Assembly (NCBI GenBank): GCA_044345855.1
Contig: JBIJAG010000002.1
Coordinates: 60,715-124,714, forward strand
DNA: 64,000 nt
Direction: 5' to 3'
Origin: Cyanobium sp.
GTDB lineage: Bacteria; Cyanobacteriota; Cyanobacteriia; PCC-6307; Cyanobiaceae
Within the stretch, counting starts at the first letter, position 1; every line of letters starts with the position of its first letter. A program made the position numbers and the translations under genes. Of this stretch, positions 47,654 to 64,000 are shown piece by piece. The notes beneath the pieces are model-generated. The model was given only the letters and a program-made list of their open reading frames with translations. It had not been told where the DNA came from and searched no databases.

Positions 47654-49609
<1,956 letters not shown>

Positions 49610-54166: not shown

Positions 54167-54403
54167 GTGCTTCATCCTCTACCCGGCGGGAGCCCCCCGC
54201 CCGTTTCCGCCCTCGATGCCCAGGGCGGCAATCGCTCGGCGTCGGTAACCGAGGCCATTCAGTGCTGGCTGCGCCGCCGCGAACTGAAGCGCCTGCAGGA
54301 GGCCTGTGGCCAGTTGGCTCAGATCCAGGGGGGTGACCTCGACCACGCCATGGCCGATGGGGCAGCCATGGGCACGGCTGTGCTCCAGGGTCTCGATGGC
54401 TGA
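54167..54403 (+). CDS. Putative RHH-type antitoxin (N-terminus atypical)
   Basis: GNRSASVTEAIQCWLRRRELKRL resembles the second helix of CopG/RHH antitoxins. GGAGG lies just upstream of GTG at 54167. The stop overlaps the toxin ATG by 8 nt. The beta-strand region is not convincing. Confidence 0.4.
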   Translation: MLHPLPGGSPPPVSALDAQGGNRSASVTEAIQCWLRRRELKRLQEACGQLAQIQGGDLDHAMADGAAMGTAVLQGLDG

Positions 54404-55466
54404 GCAAGGGCGGATCTACCGCTGGGCCCGCAACCGCAGCCTGGGCGATGCCAAGGCCAGGCCGGTGATCGTGATCGCCCCCGATGCGGCCACCGCTGTG
54501 TTGGAGCGCTGGGTGGTGGTGCCGATCAGCAGTGATCCCCGGCTGGAGGCCCATCCCCTGGCGGTGCCGCTCAGCCCTCAGGAGGGGAGTGGCCTGGAGA
54601 GAACCAGTTTCGCCATGAGCTGGTTCGCCATGAGCTGGCTGCCCACCACCGTGCTGCGCCAAGAGCTACAGGGGCCGATCGGCCGGAGCGCCCCTGAGGT
54701 GGTGCGCCAGGTGCTCCTCACCATGGCGCGTGCCCTCGATCTCTCGATGCAGGAAGCCTGGAGCGAAGCTGGAGCAAAGCTGGAGCGAAGACTGCGGCAG
54801 GAGCAGCGAACGCCTGAAGCGGGCGCCAAGACGGTCTATCGCGGTGCGACCGGGCGTGGCTGCGAAGGCAGAGCGGATTGCAGGAACCCCGGCCGGCCTC
54901 CCGAGCCAGGCCGCATCGAATCAACAGGATCAAGAGGTGGAAAGCAGCACATAAGCCGGGTTCTGTTCACCGCCACCGGGCCCGGGGGCTTGGTGGCGGG
55001 GGTGACCATCTGTCTGGGACCGCCGTTACCGGCGGCCTCGAGCGGCACTGGGGGAACGGAACGGGAACGATGGCCAACCCTTGTTCCGCGGGCCGAAGCC
55101 CTGGCCTTGCTCCCGGCCGGGGTTTACCGAGCCGGCACCTCTCGATGCCGCTGGTGCGCTCTTACCGCACCCTTGCACCCTTACCTGTGCGGCCGGCGGA
55201 CCGAGGTCCATAGGCCGCCATCGGCGGTGTGTTTCTGTGGCACTGTCCTCACGGTCGCCCGCACCGGGCGTTACCCGGCAGGCCTGGACATCGGGGAGCC
55301 CGGACTTTCCTCAACCGGCCGGAGCGCCACCGTGACCGAAGCCCGGCAACCTCCACCGATCGCGATCACCTCGGCTGCTTTCCAAGGAACAGATTACCCA
55401 GCGGCTGAGAGCTTGAATCCAGAAAGGCGGGCCGGCAGCTCTAGGTCGGGCTACCGCTGGCGATAG
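54396..55466 (+). CDS. PemK/MazF-like toxin; the formal ORF lacks a nearby stop and reads antisense through rnpB
   Basis: The first ~120 codons fit the MazF fold pattern (GRIYRWARNRSLGDAKARPVIVIAPD...WVVVPISSDP...PLAVPLSP..GSGLERTSFAMSW...LQGPIGRSAPEVVRQVLLTMARAL). Homology ends near 54750. The remainder is considered read-through. Confidence 0.5.
   Translation: MAEQGRIYRWARNRSLGDAKARPVIVIAPDAATAVLERWVVVPISSDPRLEAHPLAVPLSPQEGSGLERTSFAMSWFAMSWLPTTVLRQELQGPIGRSAPEVVRQVLLTMARALDLSMQEAWSEAGAKLERRLRQEQRTPEAGAKTVYRGATGRGCEGRADCRNPGRPPEPGRIESTGSRGGKQHISRVLFTATGPGGLVAGVTICLGPPLPAASSGTGGTERERWPTLVPRAEALALLPAGVYRAGTSRCRWCALTAPLHPYLCGRRTEVHRPPSAVCFCGTVLTVARTGRYPAGLDIGEPGLSSTGRSATVTEARQPPPIAITSAAFQGTDYPAAESLNPERRAGSSRSGYRWR
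54609..54638 (+). repeat. 15-bp in-frame tandem duplication inside the MazF-like ORF
   Basis: ttcgccatgagctgg repeated twice, giving FAMSWFAMSW. Confidence 0.95.
54758..54790 (+). repeat. 11-bp tandem repeat x3 (CTGGAGCGAAG / CTGGAGCAAAG / CTGGAGCGAAG)
   Basis: Read directly, immediately 3' of the MazF-like homology region. Confidence 0.95.
54935..55386 (-). ncRNA. rnpB: RNase P RNA (bacterial type A)
   Basis: The minus strand contains GAGGAAAGUCCGGGCUCC (55295-55312), CCUGCCGGGUAACGCCCGG, GGGUGCGGUAAGAGCGCACC and ACAGAACCCGGCUUAU. The P1 helix is GGAAAGCAGC (5') paired with GCUGCUUUCC (3'). Ends are +/-10 nt. Confidence 0.85.
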
Positions 55467-55478
55467 GCTGGCAGCCAT

Positions 55479-55552
<74 letters not shown>

Positions 55553-55582
55553 TTGGGTTTCCAGGGATCGGCCTTCCCTGCT

Positions 55583-55620
55583 GTGCCCAAAACGTGCCCA
55601 AACCGGGAGTGGTGCCCAGA
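55583..55620 (+). repeat. Three direct copies of GTGCCCA(A/G)A next to the tRNA
   Basis: Copies start at 55583, 55594 and 55612. Confidence 0.8.
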
Positions 55621-55872
55621 CTTGGCTTGCCTCGGCTGGACAGAGCCGCTAAGCTTCAACTGGAGCATTAAGAGGTCGTCGACGCCTGGCCATTCGCTAG
55701 CACCCACCGTGAAGGTCGGGTCCGGTAGCTAGGCCACATAAAGGCACGGGACTCTCTCCCTAGGCAGGCCGACCTGAAGGCCCCTGCTCGTCGAGCACGC
55801 CTTCAGGAAACACCGGCGCCACACAACAGCACCCCTACTCAGCCCGTTTGCGGGCTTTGCTGACGTTTGGCC

Positions 55873-56103
55873 ATGCCTACCACATTTGCCCATTGGGCGA
55901 GCTCCCGCTCCGCTGCGGATGCGCTCGCCGTCTCAGAACGCACCTTGCACCGCTGGCGCACCGCCGGCCTACTGAAGCCCGGCATCCACTGGCGCCGGAA
56001 GTTTCCGGCAAGCAACTCACCGTTGCTCTACGACCTCGCAGCGGTTGAGGCCGTCATGCGCGAGGCCGCCGCACGCTCCGCTGATCTGCTGGAGGTGGCA
56101 TGA
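55873..56103 (+). CDS. AlpA/excisionase-type HTH DNA-binding protein
   Basis: SAADALAVSERTLHRWRTAGLLKPGIHWRR is a MerR/excisionase-like HTH. ATGA overlap with the following replicase gene. ATG at 55873 (TTG at 55867 is in frame). Confidence 0.65.
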   Translation: MPTTFAHWASSRSAADALAVSERTLHRWRTAGLLKPGIHWRRKFPASNSPLLYDLAAVEAVMREAAARSADLLEVA

Positions 56104-58940
56104 AAAAGCCGGCAGAAACCACCCCGCCGGCCCAGATAGAAACCACTTCAACAGTCTGGCCAGCAGGCAACAGCGACGCGCCCCCATGGCAGTGGCCCAT
56201 GGACCTGGCCGCCATCGCCGCACTGAAAGCCGAAGCCGAGGCCCTTGACCGCCTGGGGCTGCAGATCATCACGGTCATTCCCGAGCCGTTGCCCGCTGAT
56301 CGGTGGCCGCAAAAGGACCGAGAGGGCGAGATTGTCCTAGACAAGGACGGCAATCCCCGGCCGGCTTTTGTCGGGAAGAATCCATCCCACTGGATCGGCA
56401 GGGATTCGCCGCGCCTGCTCAGCCATGCCAGGCCCGAACCGCTGGACAAGGTGCTGGCGAAAATCGATGCCGCTGCCAAGCATGGCCACCCCATTGGCCT
56501 GGGAGTGATTCCCAGCGACCGGCTGGTGATCGCCGATCTCGATGCCAAGGACTACCAGGGCGGCGCCACCGAACTGGAAGCCGACTACCGGCGCCTCATC
56601 GCTGCCCATCCAGAGCTCGCCCGCACCCGTACCGAGCGCACCCCATCCGGCGGCATCCACATCTACGCCGAGGTGGCCGATGGGATGGCGAGCTGGAGCA
56701 GGAGCTCCGGCGGCCGGCGCTGCCGCTTCACCACCACCCCCGGCGGGCCCCATCGCGGCGAGATGCTGAGCGGCACTCGCATCAGCGTCACCGCTCCAAC
56801 GGCCGGCAGTCTCGGCGCCTATCGGCTGATGGAGGGCGCCGAGGACTACGCGCACACCCTGATCAAGGTTCCGAGCCTCGGCGTCATCGGCATCACGCCC
56901 CACGAGAAGCCGGCCACCCCGCAGCAGTCCATCGAGCGGCCGGTGGAGAGGCCGGTGGAGCCCTGCAACGGGGAGCAGCAGCCGCCCCACCTGAGGGAAC
57001 TTCTGCGCTGCCTCGCCGCTGGCGTGCTCAGGGGTGAACGCCCCTACGGCGAGGACCGCAGTAGCAACATGGCCGGCTTCCTGAAGGAGGTCTACGGCCT
57101 CAGTAACTGGCTCGACTCCGAAGGGCTGCCCTATGCCGGCAGCGCCGACACGCTGATCGCCGAGGCGGCCCAGGCCCTCGATATCGAGGACAAGCTCGAC
57201 CGGGTGATGGCCACCATCGACGCCAGCGCCTGCACATGGGGCAGCGATCCGAAGGCCAGCCGAGGCCGCTACGACAAGGTGATGCGTGGAGGCTGGCCGG
57301 CCGGTGATGACGCCGATGGGTCTACCGCCCAGGGCCGCGGCGATCAGCAGCAGGAGCAGCCGAAGCAGGAGCGCCCGCAGCAGCGCCAGCCAGACCCTGA
57401 GCCCCTCACCTACACCGAACTGCTCGCGGCGGCGCTGGAGGCCACCCGCAGCGGCCAGGCTGATCAGGAGATGACGCTCAGGGCCGAGATCATGGCCCGT
57501 TTCCGGCGGTCTGACGCGCAGATCACCAAGGCACTCATCGACCTGCTCACCAGCCAGGAGGGAGGCGCAGCCAACCGCTCCACCTACGGCGCCGTCGACC
57601 TGGAGCGCACCGCCGGCATGGATTGGCAGGTCGAGGGCTTCATCCCCGAGCGTGATCAGGTGCTGATCTATGGCGAGGCCGGCGCCGGCAAGACCACCGC
57701 GGCGGTCGGGCTGGCCATAGCGGTGATCGAGGGCACCGGCTTTCTGGATCGCGCCAGCCGCGCCACCCAGGGCAGCGTCCTGTTCATCGCCTCAGATTCT
57801 GGCGCCGACCCGCTTAAGGCCGCCCTGCAGAGCATGGGGCTGATGGATCACCCGGCGCTGAACCCGGATGCCGAACACCGGTTGATCGTGTGGGCCCACG
57901 ACGCCGATCAGGGCCGGCTGGCATGGGACGCCAGCCTGCGCGGTTGCATCGCCCTACTCGACTTCATCCGCCGCGAGCGGCCCGCCCTGGTGATCATCGA
58001 CAGCGCCAAGGCGGTCACCAGCAAGGCCGATCTGAACTACTGCGACAACCCGCCAGTAACGGCCCTCCTGACCTTCGCCAAGGAAGTGCTGTGTGCTCAC
58101 TGCTCCATCGCCTGGCTTCATCACGACGGCACCGCCAAGGGCTCCGCAGCCGGCGCCAAAGCCTGGAAGGAAATCCCCTCGATGGTTCATGCCATCGAAC
58201 ACGTTGAGATGGGCGGCAGCGGTGACGACAAGGGTGGCGGCGGTCCACGCAATGAGTCGTGGAAATGCGAGCGGATGCGCTGGTGGAAGGTCAGGAAGTG
58301 CCGCATGGGCACCGGCCGCGAGTTCCAGTTCGAGTTGGATGAAGGCACCGGCCGCCCGGCCCTGATCCCTGCCGCGGCCAAGACGGTGGTGCAGGACGCC
58401 CGCGCCGGGATCGTGGATGAGCTCTGGCGGGCATGGCAGGAGGGCCAGCGGTCCCTGAGCCGCAGGGAGCTCATCGACGCCATGCGCGATCAGCACAGCT
58501 ACAGCAGCAAGACCACCGACAACAACCTGAGCCGCATGGTGAGGGCCAGACACCCCGAGGTGTGCAGGCTCAGCATCCCGCGCGGCCACTACAAGTTGGC
58601 GCCTCGGGTGGTGGAGGTGCTGGCCGCGGCGGCAGCCCAGACCGACACCCCCCTTATTACGTCTCTACTCCAAGGGAAGGAACAAGGAAAAAACCCAGTG
58701 AGAGAGAGCGATCTAGTGACTTCCCGAGAAGTTCCCGAGGGAACTCACCGGGAACTCACCGACGAGCCAGCCCAAGCCAGCGAGTTCCCTCGGGAAAACC
58801 TCGGGAACTGCCCTCCCGCCAGTGATCGCAATGGATCCGGCCCTATTCCTTCCCGTGAGGTATTCACCCCACGCGCGCGAGGCGCCAGCCGGCAATGCCT
58901 CAAGAGCCTGTGGCCTGATCCCTGGCAGCAGTCCGCCTGA
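56100..58940 (+). CDS. Bifunctional primase-polymerase (PrimPol) + RepA/DnaB-like P-loop helicase fusion
   Basis: The N-terminal third has PrimPol-like motifs (GLGVIPSDRLVIADLDAKDY, TPSGGIHIYAEV, GEMLSGTRISVTAPT). A Gln-rich linker follows. Walker A is VLIYGEAGAGKTTAAVGLA and Walker B is PALVIIDSAK. The C-terminus is wHTH-like. Confidence 0.85.
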   Translation: MKKPAETTPPAQIETTSTVWPAGNSDAPPWQWPMDLAAIAALKAEAEALDRLGLQIITVIPEPLPADRWPQKDREGEIVLDKDGNPRPAFVGKNPSHWIGRDSPRLLSHARPEPLDKVLAKIDAAAKHGHPIGLGVIPSDRLVIADLDAKDYQGGATELEADYRRLIAAHPELARTRTERTPSGGIHIYAEVADGMASWSRSSGGRRCRFTTTPGGPHRGEMLSGTRISVTAPTAGSLGAYRLMEGAEDYAHTLIKVPSLGVIGITPHEKPATPQQSIERPVERPVEPCNGEQQPPHLRELLRCLAAGVLRGERPYGEDRSSNMAGFLKEVYGLSNWLDSEGLPYAGSADTLIAEAAQALDIEDKLDRVMATIDASACTWGSDPKASRGRYDKVMRGGWPAGDDADGSTAQGRGDQQQEQPKQERPQQRQPDPEPLTYTELLAAALEATRSGQADQEMTLRAEIMARFRRSDAQITKALIDLLTSQEGGAANRSTYGAVDLERTAGMDWQVEGFIPERDQVLIYGEAGAGKTTAAVGLAIAVIEGTGFLDRASRATQGSVLFIASDSGADPLKAALQSMGLMDHPALNPDAEHRLIVWAHDADQGRLAWDASLRGCIALLDFIRRERPALVIIDSAKAVTSKADLNYCDNPPVTALLTFAKEVLCAHCSIAWLHHDGTAKGSAAGAKAWKEIPSMVHAIEHVEMGGSGDDKGGGGPRNESWKCERMRWWKVRKCRMGTGREFQFELDEGTGRPALIPAAAKTVVQDARAGIVDELWRAWQEGQRSLSRRELIDAMRDQHSYSSKTTDNNLSRMVRARHPEVCRLSIPRGHYKLAPRVVEVLAAAAAQTDTPLITSLLQGKEQGKNPVRESDLVTSREVPEGTHRELTDEPAQASEFPRENLGNCPPASDRNGSGPIPSREVFTPRARGASRQCLKSLWPDPWQQSA

Positions 58941-58956
58941 TCGCCCCCAATAACCT

Positions 58957-59127
58957 ATGAGTATGAACTTCCCTACCACCACCCATCACCCGCGCTACAT
59001 CGAGCGCCCGGATGATGACCTACCCAACGTGCCCTATCCCTGGCGGCCGCCAGCCAGCGGCCAGGCCCGCCGCGCCATGCCTCAGCAACTCAACCACCTG
59101 GAGGAAGTGAACCATGGCTGGAATTGA
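58957..59127 (+). CDS. Possible 56-aa ORF (below the ORF-track cutoff)
   Basis: MSMNFPTTTHHPRYIERPDDDLPNVPYPWRPPASGQARRAMPQQLNHLEEVNHGWN. It fills the gap after the replicase, and its stop overlaps the next gene start by 14 nt. No recognisable domain. Confidence 0.25.
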   Translation: MSMNFPTTTHHPRYIERPDDDLPNVPYPWRPPASGQARRAMPQQLNHLEEVNHGWN

Positions 59128-59770
59128 AATCAGGGTGCAGCTGCAGGGTTTCGACCGGATGCGTGGTTTCGTCGCTGGTCTGGAGGGCAAGCTCCAAAAG
59201 GCAGCCGCCAAAGCAGTGAACGACACAGCCAAGGCCGCTGCCGAGGATCTCAACGCCTCGACCCGTAGTGCCTTTGATCGCCCCAGCAAGTTCAGCCAGC
59301 GAGCCGCATTCGTCAGCCGGTACGCCACCGCCGCCAACCCATCGGCAGAGGTGGCGCTGCGCCCCCTTCAGGCCCGCTACCTGCAGCCCAACATCGTGGG
59401 CGGCCAGCGCCCCGCCAAGCCATCAGAGAGCCGCCTTGCCGCCTCTTACTCATCGTTGAATGCGCGGGCGGCCTGGCGTCCCGGCATCGATGCCGGCCGC
59501 GATGCTTCCGGGAACATCCGCCGCCGGCAACTGGTGGATGCGTTGAGCGGCAAGGATCCTCGATCCTTCCTGCTGACTGAGCAACGGGGCAAGCTCCGGC
59601 CCGGTGTCTATCGGCGCATGGCGCGGGGCAAGCTGCGCAACGTGCTGGCATTCGGCCAGCTGCCCACCCTGGCGAAACGTTGGGACGTTGAAAGGATCGG
59701 CCGCAATGCAGTGGCGAGGGCATGGCCAGCCGCCAGCCGCCGCCGACTTGACGAGGCGTTGAAGGGCTGA
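59114..59770 (+). CDS. Hypothetical protein (N-terminus reminiscent of phage HK97-gp10/virion-morphogenesis proteins)
   Basis: GGAGGAAG precedes the ATG. IEIRVQLQGFDRMRGFVAGLEGKLQKAAAKAVNDTAKAAAEDL resembles the N-terminal pattern of small phage head-tail proteins. This is a weak inference. Confidence 0.55.
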   Translation: MAGIEIRVQLQGFDRMRGFVAGLEGKLQKAAAKAVNDTAKAAAEDLNASTRSAFDRPSKFSQRAAFVSRYATAANPSAEVALRPLQARYLQPNIVGGQRPAKPSESRLAASYSSLNARAAWRPGIDAGRDASGNIRRRQLVDALSGKDPRSFLLTEQRGKLRPGVYRRMARGKLRNVLAFGQLPTLAKRWDVERIGRNAVARAWPAASRRRLDEALKG

Positions 59771-59966
59771 CCTTACCCCCCCCCTATTCAGGGTCCTGTA
59801 ATCACCCTTTGGCTGGGGTTCTTTCGCAGGCCCTCTCTGATTCTAGTGGCAGACTTTTTTGAATAGGACAGACATAAGACACCGTAATCCCAGCCTAGTC
59901 AGCTATACGATCCCCTACCCCGTGTCCAGCTGGGGGAGGCCCTATCCGATGTCGCCAGACTACGTG

Positions 59967-59994
59967 GACATCCCGAGACATCCCAGGACATGGC
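59967..59994 (+). repeat. 10-bp-periodic triple GACATCCC / GACATCCC / GACATGGC overlapping the next start codon
   Basis: ggacatcccgagacatcccaggacatggcc, read directly. Confidence 0.85.
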
Positions 59995-60808
59995 CGCTGT
60001 GACCTTTGCCGAGGCCGCCCGCCGCCTCGGCCACCGCTCCAGGTCCTCGCTCTATCGGCTGAAGGCGGAGCACCGGCTGGACCACTACCTGGTGGAAGGC
60101 CCCCACGGCTCCCAGCTGCTGGAGATGACCCCGGCGGAGAGGCCCACGCTGGAGGCCTACCTGGCAGCGGTCCTGGATCCAAGCCGAGGACCACAAGCGA
60201 GCCGGAGGGAGCAGAGATCCCAACGGGACCGGAGGTGGGAGCTGGTGGCCGTCACCCTCTCCGCCGCTCTGGAGGTGATCGGAGGCCCGTCTCTCACCGC
60301 AAAGGAGGCGGAGCTTCTGGCGGATCGGCTGGGACCGGCCACCTGGGAGACGTTTCCCGAAGGCCTCCCAGGGGGCATCCCGAGAGACCCTCCCCACCCG
60401 CTCTCGGACGGAAGTCCCACGATCATGGATCTCCTCTGGGTCCCCCTGGCGAAGGAGGCCAACCACTGGCTAGTGGAAGGTGGCTGGAGGTTTCCCAGGC
60501 TCACCGCGGAGGAGGTTCTCCTGGTCTGGAAGGTGGCGGAGGACTGGATGGAGGGGACTTCCTTTGACACCGAGAGCGAGGCCTGGTGGAGGGAGGCCAT
60601 GGAGGACCGAACCGAGGGAGACCCCTGCCCAGACCCTTGGAGGTGCCAATGGTGCGGGAAGCCCTGGCACGGAAACCACCCGGACTACGAAAGACCAGCC
60701 GAGGTGGAGGCCTTCTGGAAGACGTGGCTGGCACGGCTCGGGTCATCCAAGGACATTCCAGAAGAGGCCTCCCAGGAGCTGGAGGCGGCCGATTCTTCGG
60801 AGGCCTGA
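59990..60808 (+). CDS. Hypothetical Trp/acidic-rich protein with N-terminal HTH-like segment and Cys cluster
   Basis: VTFAEAARRLGHRSRSSLYRLKAEHRL is HTH-like. C-terminal CPDPWRCQWCGKPWHGNH is Zn-ribbon-like. No family recognised. Confidence 0.55.
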   Translation: MAAVTFAEAARRLGHRSRSSLYRLKAEHRLDHYLVEGPHGSQLLEMTPAERPTLEAYLAAVLDPSRGPQASRREQRSQRDRRWELVAVTLSAALEVIGGPSLTAKEAELLADRLGPATWETFPEGLPGGIPRDPPHPLSDGSPTIMDLLWVPLAKEANHWLVEGGWRFPRLTAEEVLLVWKVAEDWMEGTSFDTESEAWWREAMEDRTEGDPCPDPWRCQWCGKPWHGNHPDYERPAEVEAFWKTWLARLGSSKDIPEEASQELEAADSSEA

Positions 60809-61275
60809 AGAGGAGCAGCCGGTCCCCCTGCCACAGGTTCACACAAGGTTGCGCCGAGCTTATGGGCGCCTTATGGCCAGCCGTCAAAAGCCTTGCTACG
60901 ACTGGCCTTTGTGGTTTCGGCGCAACCCACCGCGCAAACCTGAACGCAACCGCCCGCGCCTTTCATCCGACTTTCATCCAACCGCCAGAACCGTCTCACC
61001 GCCTGGGTTCTGGGTTTCGACAGGCAAGGTGAGAGGCAAGGCCTCCACCGCCTGGTGATGAGACCCGAGGTCCCCCCGCCGCGGCCCTGGCCGATGGCTG
61101 CTACGGGCTTGTGCCAGGATGGATCTCCGGAAAATATCCGGATTCCCGAACGGTTCTCCCCGGACACCGTTACGGCAATTTGAGGCTATATATGTGCACA
61201 CGCTGCTCAGTTGAGCGCGGGAGCCCCTGACCAGGGGCACCACCTACCACCACCTACCACCGACCTCAAAAGAAA

Positions 61276-61494
61276 ATGGCTGTATTGGACCCCCCAGTGC
61301 GGTTTGATGTCCGCATGCCGCTTGATCTTGCACAAGATATGCAAGACCTTGAGCAAACAACTGGCCTTTCTCGCGGTGAAATCTTCCGCCGTGCTATGGC
61401 TCTTTACAAACGAGCAAAAGAAACCCAGTCTGCAAGAGGAAATGTGATTCTTCGCGATTCGGACGGTACGTTGCGCGAAGTGGTCGGTATCTAA
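61276..61494 (+). CDS. Ribbon-helix-helix (CopG/Arc-like) DNA-binding protein
   Basis: VRFDVRMPLDLAQDMQDLEQTTGLSRGEIFRRAMALY has a beta-alpha-alpha RHH layout. Lower GC. AAAAGAAA precedes the ATG. Confidence 0.7.
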   Translation: MAVLDPPVRFDVRMPLDLAQDMQDLEQTTGLSRGEIFRRAMALYKRAKETQSARGNVILRDSDGTLREVVGI

Positions 61495-61832
61495 TGCCAG
61501 ACAGAGGCGAAGGCCAACAGTCGGATGGGGGGAGGAAGACCCATTATCTCCCCCCTGACACCACGACTGTCTCCCTGTCTGACGCTGAGCGGAATGTCAC
61601 AGAAGTCATAAATAGCGGCGATCTTAAGTCAACAGATATAAGCCCTAAAGGGGCGAAAGCGCCCGTCTCGATGGTTCATGGTAGGGAAAGGGTCTGGATA
61701 GCTGGAGTCGCTCTTGCTATAGCTTTAATTGGGCCTTGTACTCCGTGGGTTCCTGATAACGTTAAAACGGGGTTTCTTGCAATCGCTGGCACTATTTCAG
61801 CTTCCCTTTTTAAGGGTTTTGAGAGCAACTAA
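61494..61832 (+). CDS. Small membrane protein (two C-terminal TM helices)
   Basis: TAATG overlap with the RHH gene. The N-terminal half is hydrophilic, followed by VWIAGVALAIALIGPCTPWV and GFLAIAGTISASLF. Lower GC. Confidence 0.55.
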   Translation: MPDRGEGQQSDGGRKTHYLPPDTTTVSLSDAERNVTEVINSGDLKSTDISPKGAKAPVSMVHGRERVWIAGVALAIALIGPCTPWVPDNVKTGFLAIAGTISASLFKGFESN

Positions 61833-62000
61833 TTCTCGGGCAGATCCCGCCACGCCACCCCCCACCGCTGGATCGGACCTCCCTGGAGGCTGCGGCTGGC
61901 CCGCAACCCTCACCGCCTCCCAGGATTCCAGCCGAGCTGTGAAGCCATCATGACACCTACCCCTATCGGCCCCACCACCGGGGAACCCGACCGGCCCCTG

Positions 62001-62633
62001 TTACTGCGTGACTCCCGTTAGTTTCAAGTCTTCAAGCCTGCCTGTTTCGGTTAGGCATCCTGCGGTCTCTACGCTCATGCCACCAAACCCGTTCCGTGAG
62101 CGGTATTGAATCGACACCCCCTTTTTAGGGCTTCCACTTGTTTGAGATCCCCAAAAGGTGTAGCCGATGCGTTCGTAACTGCGAGGTTCGCGCAGATTGC
62201 GTTTAATGGCCTCCTCACAAACGTATTTCATCCCTCCGAAAGGGTTCTCACTTGTGGTGCTGCCAGTCGCTTTCTTGCTTGTTGCGGTCCCGCTAGGAGT
62301 CGGTGGGCTGAGATTGTTGAACATTGTCTGATTGGCAACCCAGCAAAGTGGAGTCAGCACAACTCCCGCGCCTATCCAGCTTGCAAGTGGTGTGATCTTT
62401 TGCCCTTTCTTGGTTGTGTATTCGCCTTTTAGATTGGATAGCAGCAGGACAACCGGCGAGATAATCAAGCCAGTAGGCGCAACGATTGCCCCGGCTACAA
62501 CCGCCATGACGTAAGCCAGCGGCGACTTAATGAAAGGTTTTTTCTTCTCCGCTTCATCCTTAAGCAAGGCTGAGGCTAAGGCTTCCGCCTTCGATGCGGA
62601 CGAAGGTGGCGGCGGTGGTGGTGGTGGCTTCAT
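62001..62633 (-). CDS. Membrane protein with N-terminal poly-Pro tract, two TM helices and small C-terminal globular domain
   Basis: MKPPPPPPPPSS..., TM segments (LAYVMAVVAGAIVAPTGLIISPVVLLL, WIGAGVVLTPLCWV) and a C-terminal CEEAIKRNLREPRSYERIG...VSIQYRSRNGFGGMSVETAGC. Markedly lower GC. Confidence 0.6.
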   Translation of the reverse strand: MKPPPPPPPPSSASKAEALASALLKDEAEKKKPFIKSPLAYVMAVVAGAIVAPTGLIISPVVLLLSNLKGEYTTKKGQKITPLASWIGAGVVLTPLCWVANQTMFNNLSPPTPSGTATSKKATGSTTSENPFGGMKYVCEEAIKRNLREPRSYERIGYTFWGSQTSGSPKKGVSIQYRSRNGFGGMSVETAGCLTETGRLEDLKLTGVTQ

Positions 62634-62899
62634 TACCCCAACTTACGGATAATCGCCTTGGCTGTCACTACCTAGAACCCAGCCGATGGGCTTCAGCTGG
62701 ACGCCGCGGCCCCGCCTGTCCGCCCCTGGGAACCCTATGGAGCCCCCCACAGCACCGCCATGCCCGACCCGTCAGAGGAGCTGATCACCCCGCTCATGGC
62801 CATCACCCGCGACCCCAGCCTGGCCCCGCCATCGGGCCGGCTGCGCCCTCTGCTGGTGGGGAGGCCGCACCCGAAGCGGAGGATGGGCAGGTGGGGAGC

Positions 62900-63988
62900 T
62901 CAGGCCACCATCAGCGCCGCATTGGCCCGCTCGAAGGCCGCTGCGGCGCCGCTGGAACTGGCCCATGGGTAGGAGCGGCAATGCACCTCGAAGCTGTGCC
63001 CCATGCTCAGCGCCACCGACCCGCCGTCAATGCCCCTCAGGTGGCCCCTGAGGCTGTAGCTGTGGCGGAAGCTATAGGGCACGGCCCGCTCACCCTTGGC
63101 AGCCATCACAGCCCGCAGGGAGCGCCACCCAGGCTGGCGATTCAGGTAGGTGGCCACGCAGTCTCCAGAGCCGTTGCCGCTTGACAGTGGGGGGAGCTCA
63201 ATCAGGCCGGCCTGCCACCGCTCGATCAGGTTCCAACGCTGAGGGATCCCGTCACCATCCACCAGCGGCAGCGGATGGACCCGGCGCGGCTGGGTGTCTC
63301 CACCGCCGCTCCGCTTCCGGTAGGTGCACCACCAGTACGGCCGACCCGTGCCCGGATCGATCCGCACCGTGAGGTGGAGCAGTTCGATGGGGCGAAGCCC
63401 AAGCTCAGCCATCAGCTGGAGAGCATCACCCCACCTACAGCCCGGCCCATCAAGCGGCAACGAGGTGATCAGGTTGATGATCGCCTGATCGGTGAGTGGA
63501 TCGCCTTTCTTGATCGTGCCTCTGTGGGATCCCTTGGCGCCAACGTGGGAGCTCAGATCAGTGGGCGGCATCCACAGGGCCGGGAACTGCTCACGGGTGA
63601 CGCAGTAGCGCAGGAACTGCGCCAGCGCCTGCGCCCTTACTTGCCGCTCCTTTGACCCTGGAGGCCATAGGCGGATTACGGCATCAAGCAGATCCGCCGG
63701 ACTTGAGAGAGCCCCTCGCCCGGTGAGCAGTGGCACAGCAGCTGCCAGCGCCGGCCCGTAGGAGCGGTCCCAGGTGATCGGCTTGATGGCCCGGCCATGC
63801 TCCATCTTCTGCACCTTGAACCGCTCAACCGCCGCGGCCCAGTCCATCGCCGCCTTGGGAGCCCTGCCCTCGGCAATCTCAGCGGCGCTGCGGAGACTGT
63901 GCCCCTCGGCCACCAGCTTGTAGAGGTTGCGGATCCGGACGTAGGCATCCCCGGTGGAATCCGAATCCCAGCGGAAGGGCAGGAGCAC
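62900..63988 (-). CDS. Tyrosine recombinase (phage integrase family)
   Basis: Catalytic elements LGLRPIELLHL (Arg), YSFRHSYSLRGH (H-x-x-R) and MGHSFEVHCRSY (His...Tyr). The start lies close to the window end, so the true N-terminus may differ. Confidence 0.85.
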   Translation of the reverse strand: MLLPFRWDSDSTGDAYVRIRNLYKLVAEGHSLRSAAEIAEGRAPKAAMDWAAAVERFKVQKMEHGRAIKPITWDRSYGPALAAAVPLLTGRGALSSPADLLDAVIRLWPPGSKERQVRAQALAQFLRYCVTREQFPALWMPPTDLSSHVGAKGSHRGTIKKGDPLTDQAIINLITSLPLDGPGCRWGDALQLMAELGLRPIELLHLTVRIDPGTGRPYWWCTYRKRSGGGDTQPRRVHPLPLVDGDGIPQRWNLIERWQAGLIELPPLSSGNGSGDCVATYLNRQPGWRSLRAVMAAKGERAVPYSFRHSYSLRGHLRGIDGGSVALSMGHSFEVHCRSYPWASSSGAAAAFERANAALMVA

Positions 63989-64000
63989 CGACTGTTCAGG

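Follow-up and report, generated by a model that had tools for sequence, protein, structure and literature searches.

How do genomic islands move among picocyanobacteria, which are without plasmids and conjugation and mostly without prophages? The question arises for a 64,000-nucleotide stretch of the Cyanobium sp. contig JBIJAG010000002.1 (the window), in which an island follows a tRNA-Arg(CCU) gene. An initial annotation had read the island as a tRNA-flanked integrative element of the phage satellite kind, and this interpretation was supported by our analysis, having survived a search for the direct repeat, a search for the empty site and a check on the ownership of the integrase. We consider the island to be probably an 8.7-kb integrative phage satellite of the cos type, resembling phage-inducible chromosomal islands (PICIs) or tycheposons, in a freshwater Cyanobium-type picocyanobacterium. 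It would most likely spread by capture of the capsids of a helper phage. All coordinates refer to the window; window-equivalent positions above 64000 were taken from the metagenome contig L001 (141.8 kb), which extends past the window end.

The tRNA-Arg(CCT) gene is the sole tRNA gene found by ARAGORN in the 64-kb window (Table 1). A 44-nt core, TTCCTAAACCGTAGGTCGTGGGTTCGAGTCCCGCCAGCCCCGTT, runs from its anticodon loop to 2 nt past its end, and a second copy (48/50 identical overall) is present in L001. The direct repeat of the tRNA 3' part thus lies just past the window end, which bore out the proposal of a tRNA-flanked integrative element. The block of more than 8.4 kb outlined before proved to be a real element, whose end had to be corrected to 292 nt past the window, giving a spacing of 8,738 bp between the attL core in the tRNA and the attR core in L001.

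A pattern combining tRNA, core and far chromosomal flank matched one metagenome contig, L135, one half of which is 97% and the other 94% identical to the respective element flank, the two overlapping in the att core. As these flanks meet at the core, L135 represents a close relative without exactly 8,738 bp. Furthermore, 80 Cyanobium/Synechococcus loci were collected via the neighbouring RNase III gene (rnc), and the order glgP-f83-f113-tRNA-Arg-rnc was uninterrupted in more than 20 of them. The exact empty site, proposed earlier as a check, is therefore found in L135 and in more than 20 other genomes. Among the other loci are some with unrelated insertions at tRNA-Arg and some (L030, L068) with elements whose rep gene is 40% identical. 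Since more than 20 loci are empty and others hold different insertions, tRNA-Arg(CCU) is an island hot spot in freshwater Cyanobium, general in the Cyanobium/Synechococcus group, and the element is an insertion. Judged from these junctions, it inserted by site-specific recombination, regenerating the tRNA and leaving the 44-nt repeat behind. A freshwater picocyanobacterium of the Cyanobium type, and not Prochlorococcus, is indicated by the host GC content (~68-72%) and by the flanking genes. As a separate observation at the same tRNA, short islands in L073, L079 and L085 are bounded by another 3' fragment of tRNA-Arg, located 2.1-2.9 kb from the tRNA, and insertions of more than 9 kb are seen in other Cyanobium/Synechococcus loci (L023, L026, L031, L038, L050 and L051).

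The integrase had been described as facing inward at the far end of the island. Its minus-strand orientation was confirmed and its extent was revised: the true gene, read in L001, encodes 409 aa and has its first 43 codons past the window end. The 362-aa open reading frame (ORF) starting with GTG was discarded as an artefact of the window end, and an exact look-up of this ORF returned no match because the gene is cut there. The protein matches the PHROG 1 integrase family at 1.6e-6. A Pfam search of the window copy gave no match; relatives 62% identical reach Phage_integrase (PF00589) at 7.5e-6, just under the Pfam cut-off, and the R...RHS...GHS...Y motifs are legible in the sequence. These features mark it as a very divergent tyrosine recombinase. 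At least 457 homologs, named 'site-specific integrase', come from Cyanobium/Synechococcus, and the best 120 of them (those with names) all belong to Cyanobium or to freshwater/estuarine Synechococcus. The start codon lies inside the att repeats and is separated from attR by 113 nt. Within 20.6 kb, four copies of the motif GTGCCCAAA were counted where 0.15 would be expected, and all of them fall within two doublets, one per arm next to the core, which are candidate arm-type integrase sites. Because the integrase lies inside the repeats and the same GTGCCCAAA doublets are found in both arms, it belongs to the element and not to a separate adjacent one.

The 76-aa helix-turn-helix (HTH) protein at the tRNA-proximal end matches PHROG 66 'excisionase and transcriptional regulator' at 7e-4 and is weakly excisionase/MerR-like. 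It is 79-93% identical (aa) in sister elements, with a ratio of nonsynonymous to synonymous substitution rates (dN/dS) of 0.25-0.28. Integrases 66% identical to that of the element are also encoded on two IMG/VR contigs of 33-37 kb, L131 and L132. The tRNA-Arg motif is missing from both, and a further integrase, 34% identical, is encoded on L132. These contigs may represent related elements with other targets.

What distinguishes the element is a phage-type gene followed by a packaging-type site. The earlier statement that capsid, terminase and tail genes are missing held for capsid and TerS genes; it failed for tail genes, as the element carries a 218-aa tail-family gene and then a cos-like site. 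The 218-aa protein matches PHROG 1924 'minor tail protein' at 7e-35 and PHROG 27 'tail completion/Neck1' at 1e-6. Pfam Minor_tail_Z (PF06763) is matched by 10 of 21 family members (best 6.8e-6), the window protein itself being unmatched, and a profile search against PDB sequences returned nothing. We use "gpZ-like" as a family label, which denotes a putative function only. About 30 siphophage contigs in IMG/VR (up to 53 kb, GC 55-65%) carry a homolog in a constant gene order, comprising the gpZ-like gene, ~200 nt, TerS (PHROG 57, 9e-24), a lambda GpA-type TerL, a gpW-like protein, portal and a protease-capsid fusion. The homolog is also the final gene of the linear records of S-CBS1, S-CBS3 and the Rhodobacter (RcCronus) and Dinoroseobacter Cronusviruses. 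As an observation on the same family, the independently assembled contigs L092 and L093 represent one and the same circle of 10,194 bp (ends overlapping by 30 nt, no mismatches after rotation). It encodes a VapE-type primase-helicase, an SprT-like protein, a gpZ-like protein of 212 aa with the cos motif behind its gene, an HTH_17 protein and a ClpP-capsid fusion. The circle, in which we saw no integrase, may be a capsid-encoding mini-element or satellite.

Downstream of the gpZ-like gene, a common layout of C-run, GGGTCCT, 18-22 nt and a GGGTnnnCTCGC-like sequence was found in 29/31 unique loci, element and phages taken together, with GGGTCCT located 7-113 nt past the gene in 29/31. The 64-kb window contains the composite pattern a single time, and 100 shuffles did not yield it at all; in the phages it occurs once per locus, always at the position after the gpZ-like gene. 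In phage lambda, GGGTCCT is found at 48473-48479 and is followed, after N23, by the right end, whereas the sequence at the left end starts with GGGCGGCGACCTCGCGGG; we take 48473-48479 to be cosQ. The GGGTCCT of the element is the same 7-mer as lambda cosQ, with similar spacing (N19 versus N23 in lambda). The RcCronus record ends GGGTCCT-N19-GGTTCCTTCGCGC, and the same 13-mer begins its left end, in line with the published 13-base 5' overhang of this phage (PMC8601537). The predicted cohesive end of the element, GGTTCTTTCGCAG, is identical to that of RcCronus at 10 of 13 bases, at the same N19 spacing. As the motif coincides with the RcCronus termini and the lambda ends, GGGTCCT marks the cos site in phages with mapped ends. 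In composition and geometry, one sequence of the element thus corresponds to a lambda-type cos, with a predicted cut at 59816/59817.

Between this site and the next start codon lie a box, GATCCCCTACCCC, and direct repeats, GACATCCC. The box is common to the phage loci L124, L125, L127 and L092, the match of the region to L092 being weak in BLAST (25/30, E 0.02). In the phages, the repeats downstream of cos vary with the TerS type (TAAGGCT, TTAACTTAA or GGTTACAA) and look like the R sites of cosB; the element has its own GACATCCC, and its box and repeats are possibly cosB-like. Regarding S-CBS1, the record (NC_016164; L086 8660-8697, L088 1-265) ends 15 nt past GGGTCCT, and its beginning falls within a small-terminase gene that is not annotated (60% aa identity to phage TerS). 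It seems to be without the stretch from cosN to the 5' part of terS, and the break falls where a cos end is expected.

With its 8.7 kb, int, xis, a PrimPol-ATPase and a single virion-family gene, the element has the composition of a satellite, and the cosQ-N19-cosN-like site that it shares with phages of defined ends would be its device for entering helper capsids. The presence of a lambda-type cos together with a phage virion-family gene strengthens the satellite reading. A different view is that the element is a phage-independent, tycheposon-like one moving by vesicles or other routes, whose gpZ-like gene and cos are ancestral phage baggage with no role in packaging. Such an element would need no more than att sites, an integrase, xis and a replication module; neither a TerS nor a capsid gene is detected here by Pfam or PHROGs; packaging genes are missing from most tycheposons in the available part of Hackl et al.; and we found neither a packaged or circular form in metagenome contigs or IMG/VR nor a phage with a matching cohesive end. 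However, the exact cosQ and the N19 spacing are kept in three diverged sister elements (window/L004, L095 and L130), and the gpZ-like gene is under purifying selection. L130, with int and xis 79% identical, the same tRNA motif and a VapE-type rep, has its own TerS (PHROG 57, 8.5e-26) and no gpZ-like gene, yet it keeps cos: the one GGGTCCT of the contig, preceded by a C-run and followed by N19-GGTCGTTCAATCG, is located 160 nt upstream of the gene for the terminase. The movement of the cos motif is therefore not tied to that of the gpZ-like gene. Persistence of baggage would moreover be unexpected in an 8.7-kb element whose other modules swap freely, and we regard movement without phages as unlikely.

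This swapping is evident from the sister elements at tRNA-Arg, which keep int, xis and cos and exchange the replication module (L004) and the cargo (L095). In L004, the other genes are 93-100% identical and the 946-aa fusion is replaced by Prim-Pol/PriCT_2 (293 aa) and VapE-like (513 aa) proteins (L004 8009-10424), which reads as a clean swap of the replication module. L095 is 86-95% identical and differs in its cargo, part of which is a protein with an HSDR_N nuclease domain. The core genes, namely int, xis, rep and that of the gpZ-like protein, are under purifying selection, with dN/dS values between variants of 0.08-0.32 (0.08-0.12 for int and 0.19-0.32 for the gpZ-like gene). Together with a 72-aa ribbon-helix-helix (RHH) protein that is 100% identical (aa) in L095 despite a dS of 0.19, these values argue for working genes and not for a decaying prophage.

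A decayed S-CBS1-like temperate prophage, with integrase, replication genes, right-end gene and cos retained, nevertheless has points in its favour, as a rep-like gene, a gpZ-like gene and cos follow each other in the same order in the phage contigs L107, L109, L114 and L120-L123, and temperate relatives exist: S-LBS1 has an integrase (PMC6157547) and RcCronus is temperate (PMC8601537). Against such an origin, all core ORFs are intact with the dN/dS values given above, no fragments of structural genes are detected inside the element by Pfam or PHROGs, the compact layout of 8-10 kb is seen again in combination with other replication modules and other cargo, an identical copy is present in many samples, and the element is precisely absent from a strain 94-97% identical. 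A prophage remnant is accordingly quite improbable.

The replication module had been described as an excisionase-like HTH gene followed by an ATGA-coupled gene for a 946-aa PrimPol-helicase, and ORFs, overlap and fold agree with that description. The start of the 946-aa ORF overlaps the stop of the 76-aa HTH gene via ATGA, and the AAA_25 domain of the protein matches its family profile at 1e-14. The N-terminal 300 residues had no sequence match in Pfam, NCBIfam or PDB, a BLASTP comparison with the L004 Prim-Pol gave none either, and a word-index search retrieved two homologs only. As no family came from sequence searches, the identity of this part was resolved solely by a fold search: an AlphaFold2 model (pLDDT 71) had pRN1 or NrS-1 primase-polymerases as all top 10 PDB matches in Foldseek (E 1e-5 to 5e-4), pRN1 ORF904 being the best. 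The DxD, SGGxHxY and GE..G.R.SV.APT motifs are kept. The modelled fold and the ATPase domain together support the notion that the element has its own replicon, and the assignment of the protein as a primase-polymerase/AAA_25 ATPase fusion holds. Inside the 3' end of its gene, TTCCCnnGGGAA palindromes, a pattern with two occurrences against 0.06 expected, cluster with GGGAACT repeats and mark a possible origin of replication. Fusions of PrimPol and AAA_25 are common in plasmids and integrative elements, and with pRN1 ORF904 as best structural match one could think of an integrative plasmid or mobilisable island that spreads by conjugation or transformation using a plasmid-type primase-helicase. 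Yet no relaxase, oriT-associated or mating-pair genes were detected by Pfam, PHROGs or NCBIfam, picocyanobacteria are not known for conjugation according to the available part of Hackl et al., and the cos site would be left unexplained. We give this explanation hardly any credit.

Returning to the satellite reading, the protein encoded directly after the putative cosB-like repeats (272 aa, p272) occupies the position of terS, or of rpp in E. coli PICIs, relative to cos. It has 54 relatives among 1.8 billion representatives. At 1e-10, 2 of 32 relatives match PHROG 57 'terminase small subunit', and the relative P0163 fuses a TerS-type N-terminus to a p272-type C-terminus. BLASTP of p272 against the TerS of L130 and the HTH protein of L092 gave nothing. 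Its position, its HTH-like N-terminus and the two TerS-like relatives suggest that p272 may retarget the terminase as Rpp does.

Several results weigh against a helper-dependent satellite. An attP junction, as expected for an excised or concatemeric form, was not found in JGI metagenome contigs or IMG/VR, and there is no TerS or capsid gene among the Pfam and PHROG matches of the element itself. Viral contigs contained no exact GGTTCTTTCGCAG cohesive end; a relaxed pattern retrieved RcCronus and chance matches without a gpZ-like gene, and the cosN half of the element differs from that of every phage contig examined. Headful packaging was predicted by PhageTerm for S-LBS1, a relative of S-CBS1 (PMC6157547). 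The hhalign probability of the 218-aa family against lambda gpZ was 0.4%, and the AlphaFold2 model of the 218-aa protein was weak (pLDDT 60), with no PDB match and weak BFVD matches only. Likewise, the p272 profile aligned to TerS with a non-significant hhalign probability of 6.5%, a profile search of p272 against PDB gave nothing, and the p272 gene is absent in the sister element L095.

Excision, packaging and helper group are deduced from the sequence, and the following course of events is proposed. Infection by, or induction of, a helper siphophage (S-CBS1 or Cronusvirus-like) would lead Int and Xis to excise the element, and its PrimPol-helicase would replicate the excised DNA into concatemers. 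The GpA-type terminase of the helper would then cut at cosN of the element and terminate at cosQ, so that several 8.7-kb units could fill a full-size helper capsid, about four for a helper of 30-36 kb and five to six for one of 42-53 kb. By analogy with Rpp of E. coli PICIs, the HTH protein p272 may retarget the helper terminase, and head-tail completion may be a step on which the gpZ-like protein acts. The genes of low GC content would be accessory.

Cos-type PICIs of E. coli, the EcCICFT073 group, were reportedly described by Fillol-Salom in 2019. Members of this group possess cosQ and cosN like those of a lambda-type helper, no helper cosB, and a winged-HTH gene, rpp, in the place of terS (PMC9026076). 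Like them, the element is an integrative island of small size, equipped with a tyrosine integrase and a primase/replication gene of its own, has a lambda-identical cosQ with a cosN-like sequence at the same distance, and carries element-specific repeats and an HTH-type gene. Unlike them, it shows no detectable protein homology, resides in a cyanobacterial host and has an extra gpZ-like gene; p272 is twice the size of Rpp with no similarity found, and helper dependence is here predicted from sequence. The satellite P4 (helper P2) is comparable in size (~10 kb), tRNA integration, integrase, primase-helicase fusion, helper-shared cos and accessory hot spot. It differs in that no sid, psu, delta or epsilon homologs were detected in the element by Pfam or PHROGs, in the primase (AEP type versus the P4 alpha type) and in the terminase/cos family. 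Genes of P4-like or capsid-forming PICI satellites (sid/psu/delta/alpha; capsid-portal-adaptor set) were absent from the Pfam, PHROGs and NCBIfam matches.

With tycheposons and Synechococcus islands, as far as described in the available parts of Hackl et al. and Grebert et al. (PMC8995045), the element shares a picocyanobacterial host, a partial tRNA repeat and a divergent tyrosine recombinase with xis and primase/helicase; further common traits are a hot spot adjoined by older island material and sister elements with terS. The position of the integrase at the tRNA-distal end is as in marine Synechococcus islands (PMC8995045). In the available part of Hackl et al., the seven Prochlorococcus targets (tRNAs/tmRNA) include Arg(TCT) and not Arg(CCT), and in this one listed feature the element departs from the tycheposons. 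The element also differs from Prochlorococcus tycheposons, as presented there, by its freshwater Cyanobium host and by a hijack signal composed of cos and a gpZ-like gene instead of terS or a major capsid protein gene, and from PICI-like tycheposons by cargo that co-exists with a phage-related module, which is said there not to occur. According to the available part of Eppley et al. (PMC9618062), virion-encapsidated integrative mobile elements (VEIMEs) of marine plankton measure 5-17 kb, encode an integrase, a primase/helicase, an AlpA-like regulator and sometimes TerS, lack a capsid gene and are packaged as concatemers in full-size capsids. Gene set and size of the element are similar, and concatemer packaging is the mode proposed for it; unlike the element, known from sequence, VEIMEs were directly detected in virions, and that part of the source describes no cos site, which the element has. 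Overall, the closest systems are E. coli cos-type PICIs and P4 in function, and PICI-like tycheposons and Synechococcus tycheposon-like islands in host and context, while protein homology to characterised satellites appears undetectable. On this footing, the element would represent a cos-type satellite family in freshwater picocyanobacteria, with a packaging signal that is readable in the sequence. It is possible, though we put it forward tentatively, that the element belongs to an undescribed family of cos-type, tRNA-Arg(CCU)-integrating elements of 8-10 kb with swappable replication modules, living in freshwater picocyanobacteria and parasitising S-CBS1 or Cronusvirus-like cyanosiphoviruses via a lambda-type cosQ/cosN plus either their own TerS or a diverged copy of the gpZ-like protein encoded next to cos in the phages.

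Table 1 Features of the element and its integration site.
Feature	Position	Strand	Evidence or remark
tRNA-Arg(CCU) gene, integration target	55478-55553	+	ARAGORN; Rfam RF00005, 70 bits
attL core, 44 nt, identical to attR	55511-55554	+	Direct repeat 48/50, exact 44-nt core
GTGCCCAAA doublet of the P' arm (copies 11 nt apart), candidate arm-type integrase sites	55583-55602	+	Repeat count
76-aa HTH protein, excisionase/AlpA-like	55873-56103	+	HTH_17 1e-4; MerR weak; PHROG 66
946-aa replication protein	56100-58940	+	N-terminal AEP primase-polymerase ~56196-56930; AAA_25 RecA-type ATPase/helicase-like ~57606-58085
TTCCCnnGGGAA palindromes and GGGAACT repeats, candidate replication origin	58720-58810	.	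Inside 3' end of rep gene
56-aa ORF	58957-59127	+	Position kept in L001-L004 and L095
218-aa phage 'minor tail / tail-completion (gpZ, HK97 gp10-like)' family protein	59114-59770	+	PHROG, Pfam relatives
Lambda-type cos (predicted)	59776-59829	+	C-run 59776-59784; cosQ GGGTCCT 59791-59797; 19-nt spacer; predicted cohesive end GGTTCTTTCGCAG 59817-59829
Box GATCCCCTACCCC and, abutting the next start codon, direct repeats GACATCCC; possibly binding sites of the cosB kind	59908-59989	+	
272-aa protein (p272), conserved N-terminal HTH-like domain	59990-60808	+	Position of terS (or rpp in E. coli PICIs) relative to cos
467-nt non-coding stretch	60809-61275	.	No ORF called in metagenome records
72-aa RHH protein, candidate regulator or antitoxin	61276-61494	+	RHH_1 7e-3 (weak); PHROG 876 'transcriptional repressor' 3e-3
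112-aa protein, hydrophobic C-terminus	61494-61832	+	Start overlaps RHH stop
210-aa low-GC membrane-type protein, variable cargo	62001-62633	-	Absent from L095
Tyrosine integrase, 409 aa in full	62900-64000, continuing to window-equivalent 64129	-	First 43 codons past window end
Matching GTGCCCAAA doublet between int start codon and attR	Window-equivalent 64135-64154 (L001 8480-8499)		Repeat count
attR, 44-nt core TTCCTAAACCGTAGGTCGTGGGTTCGAGTCCCGCCAGCCCCGTT	Window-equivalent 64249-64292 (L001 8342-8385), 249-292 nt past window end		Read in L001

The remaining features of the element are less telling. The 56-aa ORF upstream of the gpZ-like gene had no family match in Pfam or PHROGs. The non-coding stretch, estimated before at ~470 bp and now set at 467 nt, contained no Rfam family at gathering score, and a scan for promoters and terminators was uninformative. 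From ~61000 to 62750, a low-GC block of 52-57% is embedded in surroundings of 65-72%. Of the two low-GC cargo cassettes proposed for this part, the low-GC block itself and the 210-aa variable cargo protein stood, whereas the RHH gene and the 112-aa gene form a pair conserved in sister elements and are not free cargo. The 112-aa protein is 82-95% identical (aa) in sister elements and has a marginal PADLOC match to '4TM effector' (9e-3). This translationally coupled pair could be a regulator/effector or toxin-antitoxin-like module. The 210-aa protein had no family match in Pfam, PHROGs or PADLOC, and an identical protein is present in 60 blocks of the metagenome collection, including contig L001. 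PADLOC recognised no known defence system among the cargo.

Beyond attR, L001 contains a further low-GC block (45-50%; L001 6300-8340, window-equivalent ~64294-66334) holding two genes, one of 250 aa that is HpsJ-like and one of 237 aa. It occurs in the empty-site contig L135 too and is diverged or replaced in the nearest genomes (62% and 38% aa identity). Because L135 carries it, the block is older island material outside the element. Used as a synteny probe in genome contigs, the HpsJ-like flank, itself low-GC island material, found no relative. On the other side, 97 nt upstream of tRNA-Arg, the minus strand of 54937-55381 contains the bacterial RNase P RNA gene (RF00010, 196 bits), and a 386-aa ORF at 54306-55466, which overlaps it, was rejected as spurious. 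Among the loci collected, the titles of L030, L038, L043, L050, L052, L068, L072 and L082, which are picocyanobacterial contigs, name Chitinophaga, Mesorhizobium, Bifidobacterium, Pimelobacter, Bradyrhizobium, Microcystis and Klebsiella. Their RNase III proteins are 57-61% identical (aa) to that of the query, tRNA-Arg adjoins in all six that are long enough, and these are likely mislabelled records of metagenome-assembled genomes.

Tycheposons and marine VEIMEs have suggested phage capsids as one vehicle of island movement, and no packaging signal is described in the available parts of those accounts; here, a lambda-type cos is legible, and it is shared with recognisable cyanosiphovirus-like contigs from the same kind of lakes. 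A satellite-like island is thereby turned into a testable pair, composed of the predicted cut site 59816/59817 and a helper group with a GpA-type terminase and a gpZ-like gene next to cos. If the proposed family is real, the gpZ-like protein would represent a new hijack factor acting at head-tail completion or at the termination of packaging, and the family would be the first case in which a picocyanobacterial island is tied to its helper phages by a packaging link defined in sequence.

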